A stretch of DNA of 64,000 nt from Candidatus Woesearchaeota archaeon (GCA_038868995.1 JAWCRZ010000001.1:34269-98268); one strand, 5' to 3'. Positions 16,547 through 62,304 are shown, numbered from the stretch's first letter. The notes: generated from the sequence alone by a model not told the origin. Program-made: numbers and translations.

Positions 16547-17425
16547 ATGAAACAGGCAGTGCTGTTCCTTGTTTTAGCCGGCTGTACGACAGGGTTGTTT
16601 ACAGCTGTTCCTGAGGAAACCGGCACGATTGATGTGTTTTTCTGCGACAAGGTTGATTGTGCTCAGGTTTTCGCGGAAAGGGCGGAGCATGCCAGCGAGA
16701 TCGCGTGCGCAATGTACCACGCCGACAGGCTGTTTTTGGGGATTCTTGAGGGCAAACAAAGCAGAATGATTGTTGATGAAGGTCACCCTTGGCCTGGTGC
16801 AGTGGTTGAATCCGGCAATGGCCTGATGCATAACAAGTTTTGCGTTTTTGATGGCGAGTTCGTCTTGACTGGCTCCTGGAATCCTGCTCAGGGGATGTCA
16901 ATCCCAAATAATGTTGTGTTTGTGCAAAGCAGGACGCTTGCCGCTGCATACCTTGCAGAGTTTGAGGAAATGTACCGTGGTCGGTTCCACGGGGGGCGTC
17001 CAAATCCTGGCATTGTAAAGCTGAACGGGCAGCTGGTGGAGGCGTATTTCTGCCCTGAGGACCAGTGCCAGAAAAAGGTTCTTGATGCACTGCGTTCTGC
17101 TGAAAAATCAATACACTTTATGACATTTGCTTTTACTGATGATGAAATCGGAGACGTTCTTCTGGAGAAAAAAAGAACTGGTGTTGATGTTCAGGGAGTT
17201 TTTGACCCGCGAAAGGATAAATACAGCGAATATGAAAAGCTGAAGGATGTGTCGGTTGTTGCCAAGGTGCACCATAAGGTGTTTATAGTGGATGGCTCCA
17301 CCGTCATCACAGGAAGTTATAACCCTTCAAGAAATGCGGATGAGCGGAATGATGAAAACATCATTATTATCCGCGACCCCGCTATTGCACGGCAGTATGA
17401 GAATGAGTTTGCACGGTTTATTTGA
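16547..17425 (+). CDS. Phospholipase D-family lipoprotein with two HKD motifs
   Basis: LAGC lipobox; HNKFCVFD..TGSWN and HHKVFIVD..TGSYN. Confidence 0.9.
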   Translation: MKQAVLFLVLAGCTTGLFTAVPEETGTIDVFFCDKVDCAQVFAERAEHASEIACAMYHADRLFLGILEGKQSRMIVDEGHPWPGAVVESGNGLMHNKFCVFDGEFVLTGSWNPAQGMSIPNNVVFVQSRTLAAAYLAEFEEMYRGRFHGGRPNPGIVKLNGQLVEAYFCPEDQCQKKVLDALRSAEKSIHFMTFAFTDDEIGDVLLEKKRTGVDVQGVFDPRKDKYSEYEKLKDVSVVAKVHHKVFIVDGSTVITGSYNPSRNADERNDENIIIIRDPAIARQYENEFARFI

Positions 17426-17828
17426 TTAGTTCATGCTTCTTCAGAATGGTTTTCATTTTTTCAAAATTTTCTGATTGCCTGAACTGGCGTAATTGTTCAT
17501 CTGGTAACTGGCGTATAATGTTGAGGGTTATTTTTGATATTTCTTTTATGTCTGTTTTGGTGTCTTCTACTGCCATTTTCATGCGCATAAGCTCTTCATG
17601 AGGTGGCTCTTCCCTTTTGAAGAATTTGGTGAGCATGCTGTCTTTTCGCTTGTTCTCAGGCGCTTTTTCGTGGTATACTTCCACTTCTTCATGCAGCTCA
17701 ATGTGCTCAGGTACTTTCTTTTTTGGTATGATTTTCTGTACTAGTTCATTTAGCTTTTTGAGATTTATGCCGGCACGTTTGCGCGCGCGTAAATATTCTT
17801 CCATATCTTTGTCGAATTCGCGTGACAT
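17418..17828 (-). CDS. Hypothetical charged protein
   Basis: Start reassigned to MSREFDKD; the track's N-terminal extension runs through a repeat element. Confidence 0.65.
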   Translation of the reverse strand: MSREFDKDMEEYLRARKRAGINLKKLNELVQKIIPKKKVPEHIELHEEVEVYHEKAPENKRKDSMLTKFFKREEPPHEELMRMKMAVEDTKTDIKEISKITLNIIRQLPDEQLRQFRQSENFEKMKTILKKHELIK

Positions 17829-17871
17829 AATCTGGTTGAGCGGAAGGTCGTTTAAAAAGTTATCTATAGAA

Positions 17872-17997
17872 GGGTGCTGCCAACTTAATGGTGCCGCGCT
17901 GGCCTGACTTTTCTTCTCTCCTTGCACTTGCAAGGGGAGAAAATTCACCTCGACAACGTCGAGGCAGCACGGCCAGCACCAGAGAGTTGACTTAACC
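17872..17997. repeat. Dispersed palindromic element, copy 1 (core inverted relative to flanks)
   Basis: GGGTGCTGCCAACTTAA-TGGTGC...GCACCA-GAGAGTTGACTTAACC; matches 49048-49186 and 61700-61830. Confidence 0.9.
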
Positions 17998-18501
17998 CTA
18001 TAGCAGTTTCTTGAGCATATTAAAATCCTTTTTCATCCTTTCTGCCATTTTGGTGAATCGCATTGCTGCAGAAGGGTGTACTGTAACCATTATGTGTTTG
18101 GCAGAAATATGCGGTTTTATGCATTCTGCTGTTTTCCCGAGAAGTACTACAATCTCTGGCTTTACTATATTAAGTTGCCTTAGCAGGTATGGCCTGCACG
18201 CGTGTATTTCTTTTTCTGTCGGCGCCCTGTTTTTTGGAGGGAAATGTTTGACTGCGCTGGTTATAAACACATCTTCTCTTTTGAGTCCAATGGATTCTAT
18301 CATTTTTGTAAGGTATTTTCCTGCTCTGCCGACAAACGGTCTTCCTGTTCTGTCTTCGTTGGCGCCTGGCGCTTGCCCGATAAAGAATATTCGCGCATTG
18401 GACGGACCTTCTCCAGGCACGCCGTGCAACGAATGCTTGTATAGAGGACATTTTGTGCATTTTGAAACTTCCTCTGCTATAATTTTGAGTGAATCGTTCA
18501 T
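17998..18501 (-). CDS. Uracil-DNA glycosylase, family 4-like
   Basis: CTKCPL, GQAPG..ED..GRPFVGRAG, HPSA motifs. Confidence 0.92.
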   Translation of the reverse strand: MNDSLKIIAEEVSKCTKCPLYKHSLHGVPGEGPSNARIFFIGQAPGANEDRTGRPFVGRAGKYLTKMIESIGLKREDVFITSAVKHFPPKNRAPTEKEIHACRPYLLRQLNIVKPEIVVLLGKTAECIKPHISAKHIMVTVHPSAAMRFTKMAERMKKDFNMLKKLL

Positions 18502-28334: not shown

Positions 28335-29402
28335 CTATTGGAAGATGACTTCCACATACCTGTGCTTGACACGGTGCAAGCTTCCGGAATCGATTGTTAT
28401 GCGAACAGGGTATTCCCCCGGCTGCGTGTCTTCTGGAAGGTCTACATAAATTGTTTTGCTGATGCGTTTGCCGACTGAAACGTCTTCTATCGGCCCTACG
28501 CTTGCGCGTACGCCTAAGTCGGGTATCGCGACAGCTGCTTCCAGGTTTTCTAGCTTCTCGTCACCATTGTTTTTGAATGAGATGGTCACTGGAACAACAT
28601 CACCTGCAAGAGCATCATATGCATTCGGTATTATAATTGCGCCGATGTGTATGCTGAGGCCGTCACCGTCATCTTCATCACTTTGACTGGGTGCCGGCGC
28701 TCCTCTTTCAACGACGTGCAGCAAAAAGCTTTCTGGCACGCCATTGCAGGTTACAATAACTTCCTCTGTTCCGGTAAAACCTGGGTTGAGGTCAAATATT
28801 CTGATATCGTCAGCTATGAAAAACAAATTGTAATGTGGTGAGGAACTGGCTATTGCAAAAACCAGTTCATCGCTGTCAGGGTCTGAGCATTTGTCAAACA
28901 CGTTTTCTTGTACAAGTGTTCCTGATGGGCTCCCTCTGAGTATTGTTACGTCTGAAAGGTCTTCCCATACCGCGTCATGTTCTGATGGGAATCCAGGTCC
29001 TGGTCCTGGTGTTGGCCCGCCTGGTATGCCTCCGCCCGGGAATCCTGGGAATCCACCATCGAAGCTGCTCCCTGTGCTGTCGCCGAATGAACCGGGTATG
29101 CCGGTTCCGGCGGGCGTTCCGCCGCTGAATGCGCTTGGGTCTGTGCCGGCTGACGTGCCGCCTGAGAATGCACTTGGGTCAACTCCGCCAAACGAGCCGC
29201 CTGAAAATCCACTTGGGTCAACTCCGCCAAACGAGCCGCCTGAGAAGCTGCCTGGGTCGGTGCCACCGAATGAGCCGCCGCTGAATCCGCTGCCGTCAAA
29301 TCCGCCGAATGAGCCGCCTTCAAATGCAACAATAAGCGGCGCTGCTATCAGCGCGGCTATAACGATGAGAGAAACAAACGGTAGTGTTTTGCTTGGTTTC
29401 AT
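28335..29402 (-). CDS. Secreted protein with Gly/Ser/Phe 13-aa repeats, cadherin-like and CARDB-like domains
   Basis: GSFGGxDPSxFSG repeats (39-bp unit); DPDSDELVF; SFKNNG..LENL C-terminal domain. Confidence 0.8.
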   Translation of the reverse strand: MKPSKTLPFVSLIVIAALIAAPLIVAFEGGSFGGFDGSGFSGGSFGGTDPGSFSGGSFGGVDPSGFSGGSFGGVDPSAFSGGTSAGTDPSAFSGGTPAGTGIPGSFGDSTGSSFDGGFPGFPGGGIPGGPTPGPGPGFPSEHDAVWEDLSDVTILRGSPSGTLVQENVFDKCSDPDSDELVFAIASSSPHYNLFFIADDIRIFDLNPGFTGTEEVIVTCNGVPESFLLHVVERGAPAPSQSDEDDGDGLSIHIGAIIIPNAYDALAGDVVPVTISFKNNGDEKLENLEAAVAIPDLGVRASVGPIEDVSVGKRISKTIYVDLPEDTQPGEYPVRITIDSGSLHRVKHRYVEVIFQ

Positions 29403-29436
29403 GGTGTTCCCTTTTTGTTAACTTTAAATAAAAAAA

Positions 29437-30447
29437 TTAATCCTCGACAAATGTGTCGATGTCATTTAGGTCTTTCTTCTTTTTCTTTTCTGCAGCGGCT
29501 TTTTCTTCAGCTGCCTTCTTCTCAGCGGCAGCCCTCTTTTCTGCAGCGGCTTTTTCTTCAGCTGCCTTCTTCTCAGCAGCTGCCTTTGCTTCCGCTTCTG
29601 CCTTTGCAGAATCATCGGCTTTTGATGGTGCAGCACTTTCTTTCTTGTCTTCCTTTATTGTTGGCTCAAGGGTGTTCATCTTGTAGAGAACTGCTGCCCT
29701 GATTACTTTGCCCTTTGAAAGTCCTTCTGTGTAGCGTCTTTCTGATATGCTGTCAACAGAGTTTGAAAGCTCTTTTGTGCCGTCTTCGCGTGCCGGAAAA
29801 TACTTTGCCAGCTTTTCCGGATTGTCAATCCATGTCACACTGTCGTACAGCTCGCGCTGTTTTTCAGGAGTGTCGAGTTTTGTTTCACGCTTGTAGCCCC
29901 AGCTGTCCTTGGTTACGCGTTTTGCAAATGCCTTGTTCGCGTCAAAGCCGAGTTCTTTTGCATGTTCTGTAAGCTTTCCTTCAAGCTTCATGTGGTCGTT
30001 TTCGTAGACGCCAAACACTCTTATGCTTGATGCCGGGTTGCCTGGCTGTTCCTGCCAGACAACAATTGCATATGCTTCCAGCTGATTGCTGTTTTTCAGG
30101 TCTGCAATGTATTTTTTGCCTTCTTTTGCAATTGCTGTTGCTTCTGCATTCACTGCTTTGCTGATTATATCTTCTCCTGTAACTGCTTTTGCAAGTTCTT
30201 CTGCGCGTGCAACAGTTGTTTCAATTGTGGAAATTTCATCAGGGTTCAGAATACCGTCTTTCTTGACGTTGTTTAATTGTTCACGAAGGTAGACCGTTTT
30301 TTCTTGGTTTCCCTTGCATGCATAGTCGTCTTTTGCCGTGCAAACTTTGTCTTCAAGTTTAGAATCTTTTTTTGCAATTGGCACACAACCAGTGATACCT
30401 GCTGCGTAAATAAGTCCTGCTGCAATTGCACCATAAATTCCTTTCAT
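29437..30447 (-). CDS. Lipoprotein with C-terminal AAEKK (TolA-like) repeats
   Basis: Start MKGIYG after GGGGGG RBS; ITGC lipobox; AAAEKKAAEEKAAAEKR repeats. Confidence 0.8.
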   Translation of the reverse strand: MKGIYGAIAAGLIYAAGITGCVPIAKKDSKLEDKVCTAKDDYACKGNQEKTVYLREQLNNVKKDGILNPDEISTIETTVARAEELAKAVTGEDIISKAVNAEATAIAKEGKKYIADLKNSNQLEAYAIVVWQEQPGNPASSIRVFGVYENDHMKLEGKLTEHAKELGFDANKAFAKRVTKDSWGYKRETKLDTPEKQRELYDSVTWIDNPEKLAKYFPAREDGTKELSNSVDSISERRYTEGLSKGKVIRAAVLYKMNTLEPTIKEDKKESAAPSKADDSAKAEAEAKAAAEKKAAEEKAAAEKRAAAEKKAAEEKAAAEKKKKKDLNDIDTFVED

Positions 30448-48358: not shown

Positions 48359-48988
48359 TTATTTCCTCGCAAGTTCGAACAGTTTTTCGTAGAGCTTATC
48401 AACGCCCTTGCCGTATTTGGCGCTTATGCCCATGACCTCATATTGTGGGAATGCTGCTTGGACTTTTTTGACTTTACATTTGCGCAGGTCTGCCTTGTTT
48501 GCAACTATCAAAACTGGAATGTTGCGCGCTGCAAGGTTGCCTATAATTGTTACATTTACCTGGGAATACGGGTCTTCAGTGCCATCGAGAACGACAAGAA
48601 CCGTGTCGACTTCGTCCAGCCATTTTATGCTTTCAATTACGCCTTTGGTTGCCTCTCTTGCACGTTTTTTTGCCTGGCTTGCCGACATGCCTGTTTTCAT
48701 AAAATCCTCATAATCTATTTTGGTGGCAATGCCGGGTGTGTCGACAAGGTTAAAAGTAAGTTCCTGCCCTTTTTTTCCTTTGATTGTAATTTTTTCTTTT
48801 ACATTCACTTCGCGCGTTTCGTGGGCAATCGGAGAGACCTTTCCCATTTCTTCACCGAGCCAGTCGAGGCAGATTTTGTTGGCAAGTGTCGTCTTGCCGG
48901 AGTTTGGCGGCCCGTAAAGACCGAGCTTGAAGTTTTGTTTCGGCCCGTTGAGAAAATACATGAAAAAATTTTTTATTTTTTTTAGCAT
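48359..48988 (-). CDS. oapA: Era-like small GTPase (OapA-like)
   Basis: GPPNSGKT, HETRE, DTPG, NKAD, SAK motifs; clustered with the two genes above. Confidence 0.88.
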   Translation of the reverse strand: MLKKIKNFFMYFLNGPKQNFKLGLYGPPNSGKTTLANKICLDWLGEEMGKVSPIAHETREVNVKEKITIKGKKGQELTFNLVDTPGIATKIDYEDFMKTGMSASQAKKRAREATKGVIESIKWLDEVDTVLVVLDGTEDPYSQVNVTIIGNLAARNIPVLIVANKADLRKCKVKKVQAAFPQYEVMGISAKYGKGVDKLYEKLFELARK

Positions 48989-49047
48989 ACACCCACCTTT
49001 TTCAACAATTTGTCCGCTCAGTTAGTATATATAGCTTTCGTTGCTGC

Positions 49048-49186
49048 GGGTGCTGTCAACTTAATGGTGCTGGCCGCTCTGCCTCGGCTTCGCTGAGGTC
49101 ATTTTTCTCTCCTCCGCACCTGCGAGGAGGGGAGAAAAATGAGTCCAGAGGACCAGAGCAGTCAGCACCAGAAACTTGACTTAACC
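49048..49186. repeat. Dispersed palindromic element, copy 2
   Basis: GGGTGCTGTCAACTTAA-TGGTGCTG...CAGCACCA-GAAACTTGACTTAACC. Confidence 0.9.
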
Positions 49187-49231
49187 GTTACTGCGCAAGA
49201 TTTATAATGGATTCGTGCATATGCCAGGTCG

Positions 49232-49420
49232 ATGAAAAAAGAAGTGCGAAAGGCAATGGAGAAAGCAAAAGAGCTGGAAAAAATTCCATTACCCAGCAAA
49301 CAAGAAATAACGACAATTTACAAGGAAGGAATGCAGGAAGCTGAAAAGCTCAGAAAATTGCTCAAGCCGGCATGGTTTATGCACGACACCGGCGTGAAAA
49401 AGCGCAGGCGCAAAAAATAA
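49232..49420 (+). CDS. Small basic hypothetical protein
   Basis: 62-aa helical ORF with a TTTATAAT box upstream (49200-49207). Confidence 0.5.
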   Translation: MKKEVRKAMEKAKELEKIPLPSKQEITTIYKEGMQEAEKLRKLLKPAWFMHDTGVKKRRRKK

Positions 49421-60998: not shown

Positions 60999-61640
60999 TT
61001 ATTTTTTTGCTGATTTGGTTATTCGGGAGAGCTCTTGAATGTTTCCTGTTAGTTCCGGAAGAACTTTCTGGAAGACCTTTTCCATCGCTTTTATTTCTGT
61101 TCCTACGTCCATCAGGGTTTTGTCATATTCACCTATACGTGCCACGATTGCCTTGTGCAGTCCATCGAGGTCTGCCCGTATGTCTGTCATGCTTTGCTCA
61201 AGCTTGTCTATGCGTGAGGTTAGAAGGTCTTTCCATTCGTTGACTTTGGCAACGTCTTTTTGCAACTCGTGCCATTTTTCCTCTATGATTTGCTCAACTA
61301 GTGCTTCTGATTCAGGGTGTGCCGGTGCTTTTATTTCGCTGCGGGGTGGCATTTCTCCTGGCGCTTCCATTGGCTCTATTGTCTTTTTGACTTCTGCTTG
61401 TGCTAATGCGTCGTAGATTTGTGTTGGCTGGTAGCCCTGTCTTTGTAATGTTTGTATGATTTGGTTGTTTGTCAGTCCTTGTGACTGCATGCTGACAACT
61501 TGCGCTATTGGAACTTCAGAAGGCAATGGAGGGGGTTGTGTGCCGGGCATTGGGGGCGCTCCTGGTGGCATTTGCCCTGTAGGCATTGGATAGGGTGTTT
61601 CTATGTCTTTTTTCTTTTTGAAGATGTCCATTAATGCCAT
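60999..61640 (-). CDS. Hypothetical protein: Pro-rich N-terminus, small helical domain, coiled coil
   Basis: PMPTGQMPPGAPP; QGLTNNQIIQTLQRQGY; heptad-rich C-terminus. Confidence 0.8.
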   Translation of the reverse strand: MALMDIFKKKKDIETPYPMPTGQMPPGAPPMPGTQPPPLPSEVPIAQVVSMQSQGLTNNQIIQTLQRQGYQPTQIYDALAQAEVKKTIEPMEAPGEMPPRSEIKAPAHPESEALVEQIIEEKWHELQKDVAKVNEWKDLLTSRIDKLEQSMTDIRADLDGLHKAIVARIGEYDKTLMDVGTEIKAMEKVFQKVLPELTGNIQELSRITKSAKK

Positions 61641-61699
61641 CGTATCAACCTTTTTTTATTCGTTGAAGAATTAATGATTTTTAAAGGTTTGTATTAGGA

Positions 61700-61830
61700 G
61701 GTCAAGTCAAGTTTCTGGTGCTAACTTGCCTTGGTCCTCTGGACTCATTTTTCTCTCAGGTGCGGAGGAGGGAAAATTGACCTCAGCGAAGCCGAGGCAG
61801 AGCGGCCAGCGCCATTAAGTTGACAGCACC
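61700..61830. repeat. Dispersed palindromic element, copy 3 (reverse orientation of copy 2)
   Basis: Reverse complement reads GGTGCTGTCAACTTAA-TGGCGCTGG...TAGCACCA-GAAACTTGACTTGACC. Confidence 0.9.
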
Positions 61831-61833
61831 GTA

Positions 61834-62304
61834 TTAGGATGGGCTGTCGTAATTTGGCTTTTCTGTTTCTTCGTGCTTGCCGAGTTTTTCGTCAATTATT
61901 TTCTCGATTCTGTCTGCAGTTACGAATTTGACCGGGTCCCAGAGTTCAAGGTAGCGCTTCATGACGTCAATGTCTTCTTTGCGCGCAGCTAGCCGGAGTT
62001 CTTTGATTATGGTTATTATCTTGTCCTCGACTGCTTGTATTGTACGACGCATTTCCGTAACGTCATTTTGGAGTAATTTTATTTCTGCCATTGCTTTTTT
62101 GTGGTTTGATAGCATGTTTTGTTCCACAAGAAGCAGTTTTTTGCGGAGTTCTGAGTAGCGTTCTTCGCTAATGCGCACTCTTGCAGCCATCAGGTTGAGC
62201 TGTTCTGTTGTGCCGCTTATGTCATGCTCTATTGCTTGTTTTGGCGCTCCAAATGCGCTTTTTGCCGGTATCGGCGGCTCTATTGCATAGGTTTCTTCTG
62301 GCAT
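61834..62304 (-). CDS. Hypothetical coiled-coil protein
   Basis: Heptad-rich 156-aa ORF, co-oriented with 60999-61640. Confidence 0.75.
   Translation of the reverse strand: MPEETYAIEPPIPAKSAFGAPKQAIEHDISGTTEQLNLMAARVRISEERYSELRKKLLLVEQNMLSNHKKAMAEIKLLQNDVTEMRRTIQAVEDKIITIIKELRLAARKEDIDVMKRYLELWDPVKFVTADRIEKIIDEKLGKHEETEKPNYDSPS

Follow-up and report, generated by a model that had tools for sequence, protein, structure and literature searches.

The window, a 64,000-nt stretch of DNA from a Candidatus Woesearchaeota archaeon (JAWCRZ010000001.1:34269-98268 in GCA_038868995.1), holds three copies of a short element, and in one of them the core is the reverse complement of that in the other two, between ends that keep their order. 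The elements are non-autonomous mobile MITEs with IS1-like ends, and both orientation classes have transposed as units. Flips of the core are recurrent and inherited, with at least two events in this genome and at least two in a related family of a second Woesearchaeota genome. We put at roughly 0.75 the probability of the following account: the termini drive the movement of the MITE, the core has occasionally been flipped between its arms, and the T1 subfamily, which includes window copy 1, was amplified from one such flip. The flip looks like a heritable accident of copying or recombination and not like a working switch.

The genome (G000) is a MAG of Woesearchaeota type, 940 kb (0.94 Mb) in 20 contigs and 98.6% complete. 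Genome-wide pairing of the A and B ends gave 64 full elements of 121-142 nt, with fragments besides. The three copies reported in the preliminary description all exist, each with flank A (GGTGCTGYCAACTTAA) and flank B (GARASTTGACTTRACC) and each between 9-bp direct repeats; the starts of copies 1 and 2 shift by 1 nt (Table 1). Copies 2 and 3 read A-core-B, and copy 3 is over its whole length the reverse complement of copy 2 (window repeat families I1, I4 and I6). The ends are terminal inverted repeats, A (GGTGCTGTCAACTTAA) and B' (GGTTAAGTCAAGTTTC) matching at 10 of 16 positions before a near-perfect inverted repeat of 13-17 bp begins. From one end to the other, the element comprises terminus A (16 nt), an arm (13-17 bp), the core (about 65-75 nt), a second arm and terminus B (16 nt). 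Identical 9-nt flanks surround 30 of the 64 elements and flanks with one difference another 18; several of the remainder have apparent 8-bp duplications by eye. A comparison of filled and empty sites, suggested in the preliminary description, found the copy 1 site vacant in the congener G012, where the orthologous intergenic region has a single target 9-mer, CTATAACAG. The elements are short, non-coding and multi-copy. Terminal inverted repeats, 9-bp duplications, 64 copies and the empty site therefore identify them as mobile, TIR-bounded, non-coding elements, that is, as MITEs, which agrees with the earlier view of a non-autonomous mobile element. They are also structured, as had been claimed: copy 2 folds as DNA at -39.6 kcal/mol (z = -6.7), and the core has covariation support. 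The family would be a DDE-type MITE of a Woesearchaeota-like DPANN archaeon, whose insertions make a 9-bp duplication and lie just upstream of BRE/TATA promoters.

Table 1. Copies of the element and their parts in the window, followed by related and chimeric elements elsewhere in the genome (contig:positions). Gene calls are ORF-based.
Feature	Position	Strand	Remarks
Copy 1, flipped-core (T1) MITE	17873..17997	+	125 nt; A end left; A end 1 mismatch, B end 2 mismatches to consensus
Copy 1 left target-site duplication CTATAGAAG	17864..17872	.	flank comparison; single CTATAACAG at the G012 empty site
Copy 1 terminus A GGTGCTGCCAACTTAA, candidate transposase end	17873..17888	+	fits GGnnnTG rule; aligns with E. 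coli IS1A IRL over GxTGCTGCCAACTTAxTGxT
Copy 1 internal inverted repeat, left arm TGGTGCCGCGCTG	17889..17901	+	4 nt shorter than right arm
Copy 1 flipped core interior	17902..17964	-	hairpin CCTCGAC-GTT-GTCGAGG adjoins B side; minus strand is the core sense strand, as defined by T2 and solo cores
Copy 1 internal inverted repeat, right arm CAGCACGGCCAGCACCA	17965..17981	+	window repeat family D7 and arm comparison
Copy 1 terminus B GAGAGTTGACTTAACC	17982..17997	+	T1-specific variant
Copy 1 right target-site duplication CTATAGCAG	17998..18006	.	includes stop codon of UDG-family gene 17998-18501 (-)
TATA box TTTTTAAA, copy 1	17851..17858	-	14 nt from A end; drives leaderless gene 17418-17828 (-), start codon 44 nt from element
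Copy 2, T2 MITE	49049..49186	+	138 nt; A 49049-49064, left arm 49065-49081, interior 49082-49153, right arm 49154-49170, B 49171-49186
Copy 2 left duplication GTTGCTGCG	49040..49048	.	flank comparison
Copy 2 right duplication GTTACTGCG	49187..49195	.	flank comparison
TATA-like box CTATATATAC, copy 2 A side	49025..49034	-	14 nt from A end; faces GTPase gene 48359-48988 (-)
TATA box ATTTATAA, copy 2 B side	49200..49207	+	13 nt from B end; faces ORF 49232-49420 (+)
Copy 3, T2 MITE	61700..61830	-	131 nt; B end 61700-61715, A end 61815-61830
Copy 3 left duplication GTATTAGGA	61691..61699	.	flank comparison
Copy 3 right duplication GTATTAGGA	61831..61839	.	overlaps stop codon of gene 61834-62304 (-)
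TATA box TTTAAAAA, copy 3	61678..61685	-	14 nt from B end; faces gene 60999-61640 (-)
T3 copies	C17:5420-5561, C2:7821-7961, C4:49199-49309, C20:8570-8679		
T3 copies, further	C10:29491-29611, C2:21673-21780, C2:38030-38134		
Chimera	C11:9697-9839		T3 left half and T2 B end
Chimeras	C13:1989-2118 and C15:1332-1455		T2 A end and T3 B-type end
Chimera	C14:13786-13900		T4 left half and T2 B end

Copies 1 and 3 are inserted exactly between the stop codon of one gene and the BRE/TATA of the next; the stop codons of the UDG-family gene (17998-18000) and of gene 61834-62304 (61834-61836) lie inside the 9-bp target duplications. At the position of the copy 1 target (window 17864-18006), the congener G005 (L086, on C103, ~542-617) has an unrelated 76-nt insert, AATTTTGATTTATAATG...CAAAGTCGT, with flanks CTATAGAG and CTATAATAG; G012 has the empty site. 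The different inserts in G000 and G005 suggest that this site beside the promoter is an insertion hot spot.

Among the 64 elements, 49 have the core arrangement of copy 2 (T2) and 15 the flipped one. In global alignment the T1 and T2 consensus cores score 47 when one is reverse-complemented and 15.5 in forward orientation, against -8.4 +/- 4.5 (maximum 9) in a shuffle control (n=2000); for copy 1 against copy 2 the scores are 31.5 and 17. That even the forward score lies above chance is due solely to the quasi-palindromic nature of the core. The forward fit is thus not an equal one, and the reading of copy 1 as a reverse-complemented core between unchanged A and B flanks is correct. A GC-rich diagnostic hairpin, CCTCGRC-loop-GYCGAGG, makes the same point, standing beside A in copies 2 and 3 and beside B in copy 1. 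The compensatory changes noticed earlier in this hairpin (CCTCGGC-TTC-GCTGAGG vs CCTCGAC-GTT-GTCGAGG) are real, and are backed by covariation in 20 related cores. An assembly artefact was considered and rejected: the 15 flipped loci lie on 13 contigs, each with unique flanks, and 11 of them have a 9-bp duplication with at most one mismatch.

The preliminary description had bounded the core by the inverted repeat TGGTGC/GCACCA. This repeat exists; it is just the outer part of the 13-17-bp repeat. Comparison of the T2 arms (TGGTGCTGGCCGCTCTG ... CAGAGCGGCCAGCACCA) with those of the flipped class (TGGTGCCGCGCTG ... CAGCGCGGCCAGCACCA) does not allow the flip breakpoints to be placed at the hexamer.

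Orientation is inherited. Fourteen of the flipped copies, window copy 1 among them, form one clade, T1 (ultrafast bootstrap/SH-aLRT 93/84, in a core tree of ~108 columns of quasi-palindromic sequence). They have in common a 4-nt deletion in the left arm and a B-end variant of their own (GAGAGTTGAC vs GAAACTTGAC). Mean pairwise identity within the flipped class is 88%, and even a reverse-complemented T1 core shares no more than ~70-77% identity with the T2 consensus core. The clade, the shared arm deletion, the B-end variant and this divergence together indicate one old flip followed by amplification. The fifteenth flipped copy, C3:74637-74757, has exact T2-type termini, T2-type arms and the T2-type hairpin with its interior flipped, the asymmetric right arm GCGGCCAGCCAGCACCA still being on the right, and the core tree places it within the T2 clade (99/96). 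This T2 copy was flipped independently, with breakpoints inside the arms.

This pattern of inheritance bears on whether the core works as an active genetic switch, toggled at the TGGTGC-containing arms by a serine invertase or tyrosine recombinase with an effect on the adjacent promoter. The arms are inverted repeats with the right geometry, elements stand 14 nt from TATA boxes, flips recur, and one serine recombinase of 168 aa and two tyrosine recombinases are encoded elsewhere in the genome, all outside the window, which as previously stated contains no recombinase. We nevertheless hold such a switch to be very unlikely. Orientation tracks lineage in the T1 clade, the B-end variant and the arm deletion; amplification accounts for the 49:15 split; promoter polarity is independent of core orientation; and both core strands fold equally well, each with a hairpin and then a T run, so that a flip changes little. 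The serine recombinase (C12:17874-18380; L124 2875-3381, minus strand), the single one in the genome, has a complete catalytic domain but no C-terminal DNA-binding (HTH) domain. It lies beside P-loop and small genes of no assigned function, in what is possibly a small integrated element, and neither it nor the tyrosine recombinase genes adjoin an element copy. Of the 'invertible core' first proposed, inversion between the internal inverted repeats stands, with template switching or recombination there as its simplest route. Active inversion by a site-specific recombinase does not, orientation being a lineage trait (own B end, 70-77% core identity) and each copy having its own target duplication. 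JGI metagenome contigs, searched with exact 22-mers for evidence of mixed orientation, had 0 matches.

Flips are also found with another core. Within 401 class genomes the A-end pattern is essentially confined to G000, with 62 matches, and to G070, a Woesearchaeota genome of a different family in the same order, with two exact ones. G070 contains ~30 copies of a related MITE with the A end as in G000, nearly invariant 13-bp arms (GTGCCAATGCTGC/GCAGCATTGGCAC) and a core of ~77 nt that is unrelated to the G000 core and folds poorly. In 15 of the 22 copies read, the core has a long B-type end on its left and an A- or beta-type end on its right. Copies L054 and L075 have the opposite arrangement, with 9-bp direct repeats by eye (CTATCCAAG, and CTCAATTGC/CTCAATGGC), and the core of L054 is closest (91%) to a copy of majority arrangement. 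Flipping of an unrelated core in G070 implies that it goes with the stem-and-loop geometry and not with a particular core.

We propose that the arms form a long stem with the core as its loop, and that the core is for this reason inverted occasionally. This could occur by template switching within the hairpin during replication, or by arm-to-arm recombination or gene conversion, in one copy or between oppositely oriented copies. The molecular route is one that we infer; an intramolecular flip and gene conversion give the same product. A flipped product would keep intact termini and hence transpose normally; one flip would have founded T1 (14 copies), the others being singletons. On this account mobility and promoter docking both depend on the termini, and the flip is neutral for either. 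A Holliday-junction resolvase acting on an extruded cruciform was rejected as the cause of the flip, as such resolution yields hairpin-capped breaks and not inversion.

Hairpin-associated 'minute inversions' in plastids were reportedly described by Kelchner and Wendel in 1996. Small hairpin-loop inversions recur in plastid genomes without a recombinase (PMC12371153). As in these plastid and other quasipalindrome inversions, a loop bounded by an inverted-repeat stem flips here recurrently and homoplasiously, without a dedicated recombinase and with breakpoints hidden in the stem. The plastid loops are of 4-50 bp at fixed loci (PMC12371153), whereas the present loop of 63-77 nt lies in a mobile element and its flipped allele has been copied genome-wide. 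Correia elements (CREE) of Neisseria are MITEs with unequal TIR types, for which inversion is reported in a passage of PMC10969869 (ref. 52 there, Elbeyioglu et al. 2017). Like the present family they are MITEs of ~100-150 bp with two kinds of imperfect TIR giving subtypes, intergenic, promoter-proximal and strongly hairpin-forming, with an interior invertible between inverted repeats. CREE are bacterial, with a TA duplication and another transposase, whereas this family is archaeal with a BRE/TATA target. The inversion described for CREE turns the element at a locus, between its Correia repeats; in the present family the IR-bounded core alone flips, between fixed outer 16 nt. New with respect to known flipping elements are the amplification of the flipped form into a subfamily of its own, flips in two archaeal lineages, and a flip that reveals a determinant of polarity. 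Recurrent, heritable IR-bounded inversion within a mobile element, followed by amplification, generates MITE subfamilies; the classification of repeats and phylogenies drawn from alignments can go astray because of it.

The core and the inner 9 bp of the arms form a separable four-way-junction module, which is also found free in congeneric genomes. BLAST matches of copy 2 in 40 relatives cover its positions 26-112 alone, to the exclusion of the termini. In G004, G006, G007, G011 and G012 the TIR-less unit consists of (tCC)GCCGCTCTG - hairpin 1 - long T/A-based hairpin - short hairpin - CAGAGCGGC(GGA), and folds into a four-way junction with zero unpaired junction nucleotides; the long helix contains several G-U pairs. 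Across 20 TIR-less cores 96.6% of cells are paired, against 41-54% with partners slid, and 16 of 30 pairs, across four helices, have changed on both sides; none of 500 shuffles reached any pairing or covariation measure. A covariance model built from these 20 cores has 79 matches in G004, 75 in G007, 21 in G012, 14 in G015 and at most 9 in each of six other genomes, counting both strands, and none in the other 30 relatives. The TIR-less copies in the relatives occupy tight intergenic gaps in either orientation, with neither duplication nor TIR around them, and their flanking genes (in ~1.5-kb flanks) are 10 (-,-), 5 (+,+), 4 divergent and 2 convergent. One such core is common to G007 and G011 at an orthologous site. 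In G000 no TIR-less core was seen, the module being present there only inside TIR-bounded elements.

Covariation across four helices, very stable folds (z ~ -6.5) and the G-U pairs of the long helix are what would be expected of a multi-copy structured non-coding RNA gene or cis-regulatory RNA, in which the inverted repeats are RNA helices and transposition has no part. The target-site duplications and the empty site speak against it, as do the occurrence of both orientations relative to genes and the lack of an own promoter. Neither strand is consistently preferred in folding, since the sense strand folds more stably in 9 of the 22 solo cores and in 16 of the 49 T2 cores, and for this reason the RNA-gene reading was dropped; we would give it hardly any credence. 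Rfam searches agree with the earlier failure to recognise the family, as no family matched the element at gathering or permissive thresholds: a tRNA is the sole match in the window at the gathering score, and five element-bearing loci gave nothing at E <= 1. On each strand a hairpin precedes a run of five T, and to judge from this sequence the module could terminate archaeal transcription in either orientation.

The free module also raises the question of whether the two orientations were assembled independently. A free module could have been captured twice, in opposite orientations, between the same termini, or could twice have replaced the core of a shell by gene conversion via the palindromic outer stem. 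Such a module exists and abounds in congeners, and cores are exchangeable, since the G000 A end surrounds a wholly different core in G070. The modest identity of the T1 and T2 consensus cores would fit, and the tree puts two TIR-less cores (G006, G012) beside T2 and not T1 (94/80), although on ~108 quasi-palindromic columns. Yet T1 and T2 share an 8-bp arm extension of the shell and the junction GGCCA|GCACCA, which solo cores do not have; C3:74637 plainly derives from a T2 copy by a flip that left the T2 arms where they were; flips occur within one core family in G070; and a TIR-less core was not seen in G000. We therefore think independent assembly improbable, and prefer occasional flipping of a resident core.

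It is conceivable, with the odds against it, that two independent selfish systems are joined in the element as a chimera, a DDE-type shell and a TIR-less four-way-junction cargo that propagates itself. The 16-nt termini of the shell alone would encode mobility and polar docking 14 nt upstream of BRE/TATA, and the cargo would be a repeat with neither duplication nor TIR and without an associated known transposase. If this were true, the cargo would be an undescribed class of archaeal structured mobile element, and the flips and swaps of cores among T1-T4 shells would be the trace of frequent recombination at the outer stem of the junction. The TIR-less core resembles REP/REPIN (RAYT) and the IS200/IS605-derived PATEs in being a short, GC-rich, structured palindromic repeat, intergenic in either orientation, in dozens of copies without duplication and patchy among close relatives. 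It differs from them in its archaeal host and in being a four-way junction, not a simple hairpin or a doublet of hairpins. Moreover, the Y1 (HUH) transposase domain Y1_Tnp, which the preliminary description had proposed looking for, is absent from G000, G004 and G007. 

Exchange between element copies is real in G000. A T3 family there has related termini (GGTGCAGTCAAGTTTTGTGTCTAA ... GGCAACATTGTCATTTAATTTGACAGCACC) and a diverged homologous core in the orientation of T1, and a T4 family has different termini (GGCTGTATTGAAAGG...). Chimeras of T3 with T2 and of T4 with T2 join left and right parts of these families (Table 1), and the two whose flanks were read (C11:9697-9839 and C13:1989-2118) have 9-bp duplications by eye. 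One chimeric element has two B-type ends. Further MITE families in the genome have unrelated termini (GGCTGTATTGAAAGGTTCAG...; GCGTTGAAAAAGTCCCG...), at C9:3983-4092, C4:54794-54902 and C3:16529-16611, and at C7:26630-26698. Their cores follow the design of the main family, hairpin / T-run / long hairpin / A-run / hairpin. The interiors of MITEs can thus be exchanged as modules in these DPANN archaea, and one such module, a conserved four-way junction, spreads by itself in sister species. What moves it there, and whether its hosts put it to use, perhaps as an insulator or a bidirectional T-run terminator, are questions that follow.

Docking polarity follows the termini and not the core, and the A end is preferred at 14 nt from BRE/TATA in both classes. 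In 49 of the 64 elements the A end has a TATA-like 8-mer at a distance of 10-18 nt (mode 14), and in 23 the B end has one, against a background of 2% at random genome positions; ORF starts peak 44-45 nt from the element, as for leaderless genes. One-sided promoter contacts (TATA plus ORF start) are divided A 7 : B 2 in the flipped/T1 class and A 25 : B 9 in T2. The two classes do not differ (Fisher p = 1.0), and the flipped class is hardly compatible with polarity driven by the core (p = 0.002). Since T1 and T2 dock the same end towards TATA, the orienting asymmetry must sit in the outer 16-22 bp. The flipped subfamily is in effect a natural domain-swap experiment on docking polarity, and it narrows the search for how a transposase reads archaeal promoters. 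It had been stated that the same core strand is sense to the neighbouring gene in all three window copies. This is so provided that the B-side gene is chosen for copy 2, but it does not extend to the genome, where one-sided cases comprise 16 sense and 27 antisense. A fixed distance upstream of the core promoter and a preferred polarity are shared with promoter-targeting transposons (the TnGBS/ISLre2/ISKra4 group in bacteria, Ty3 in yeast). The present family differs from these in its archaeal host and BRE/TATA promoter.

A candidate source of the ends is the IS1 family. IS1-family elements have GGnnnTG ends and make 8-9-bp duplications (ISfinder family description). The A end, GGTGCTG, and the 9-bp (sometimes 8-bp) duplication fit this description, and the unequal ends resemble IS1 IRL and IRR; the B end, GGTTAAG, does not fit. 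The A end matches the left end of E. coli IS1A (from NC_000913) at 18 of 20 positions with a 3-nt gap allowed, a score reached by 0.02% of random G000 24-mers. IS1-family genes do occur in Woesearchaeota, in 5 of the 401 genomes of the class, but in none of the genus. The IS1 DDE domain (DDE_Tnp_IS1) is absent from G000 and 40 relatives, although a MAG may miss multi-copy IS. IS1 searches of G000, its relatives and the 401 class genomes found no autonomous element with the MITE ends. The Woesearchaeota IS1 elements examined have other TIRs (GGnnGTG...GACTGATA), with 8-bp duplications in the two copies checked. Across 32 IS1-family loci from public genomes the tips are GGTnGTG, with an (A/T)(C/A)TGAT or TAATGGT motif near position 17-23, and none of the 32 has the MITE ends. 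We know of no promoter-proximal targeting as an IS1 trait. On the evidence of the ends, the IS1 family is the best candidate source, and the missing transposase would be of IS1 type.

Intact IS1-family elements of Woesearchaeota were found at L079 1134-1918 (G366) and L080 1137-1918 (G145), of 782-785 bp, with overlapping insA/insB-like frames and 8-bp duplications. One of these duplications is ACTTTATA, followed by AAC, which places the insertion in a TATA-like sequence.

Elsewhere in the window, positions 475-549, 900-974 and 1310-1384 are three tandem paralogous gene starts at a spacing of ~410-425 bp, with similar hydrophobic N-termini (repeat family D2). Positions 29104-29618 are coding-like and internally repetitive; the repeats there (families D1, D5 and D8) recur every 39 nt and every 15-21 nt.
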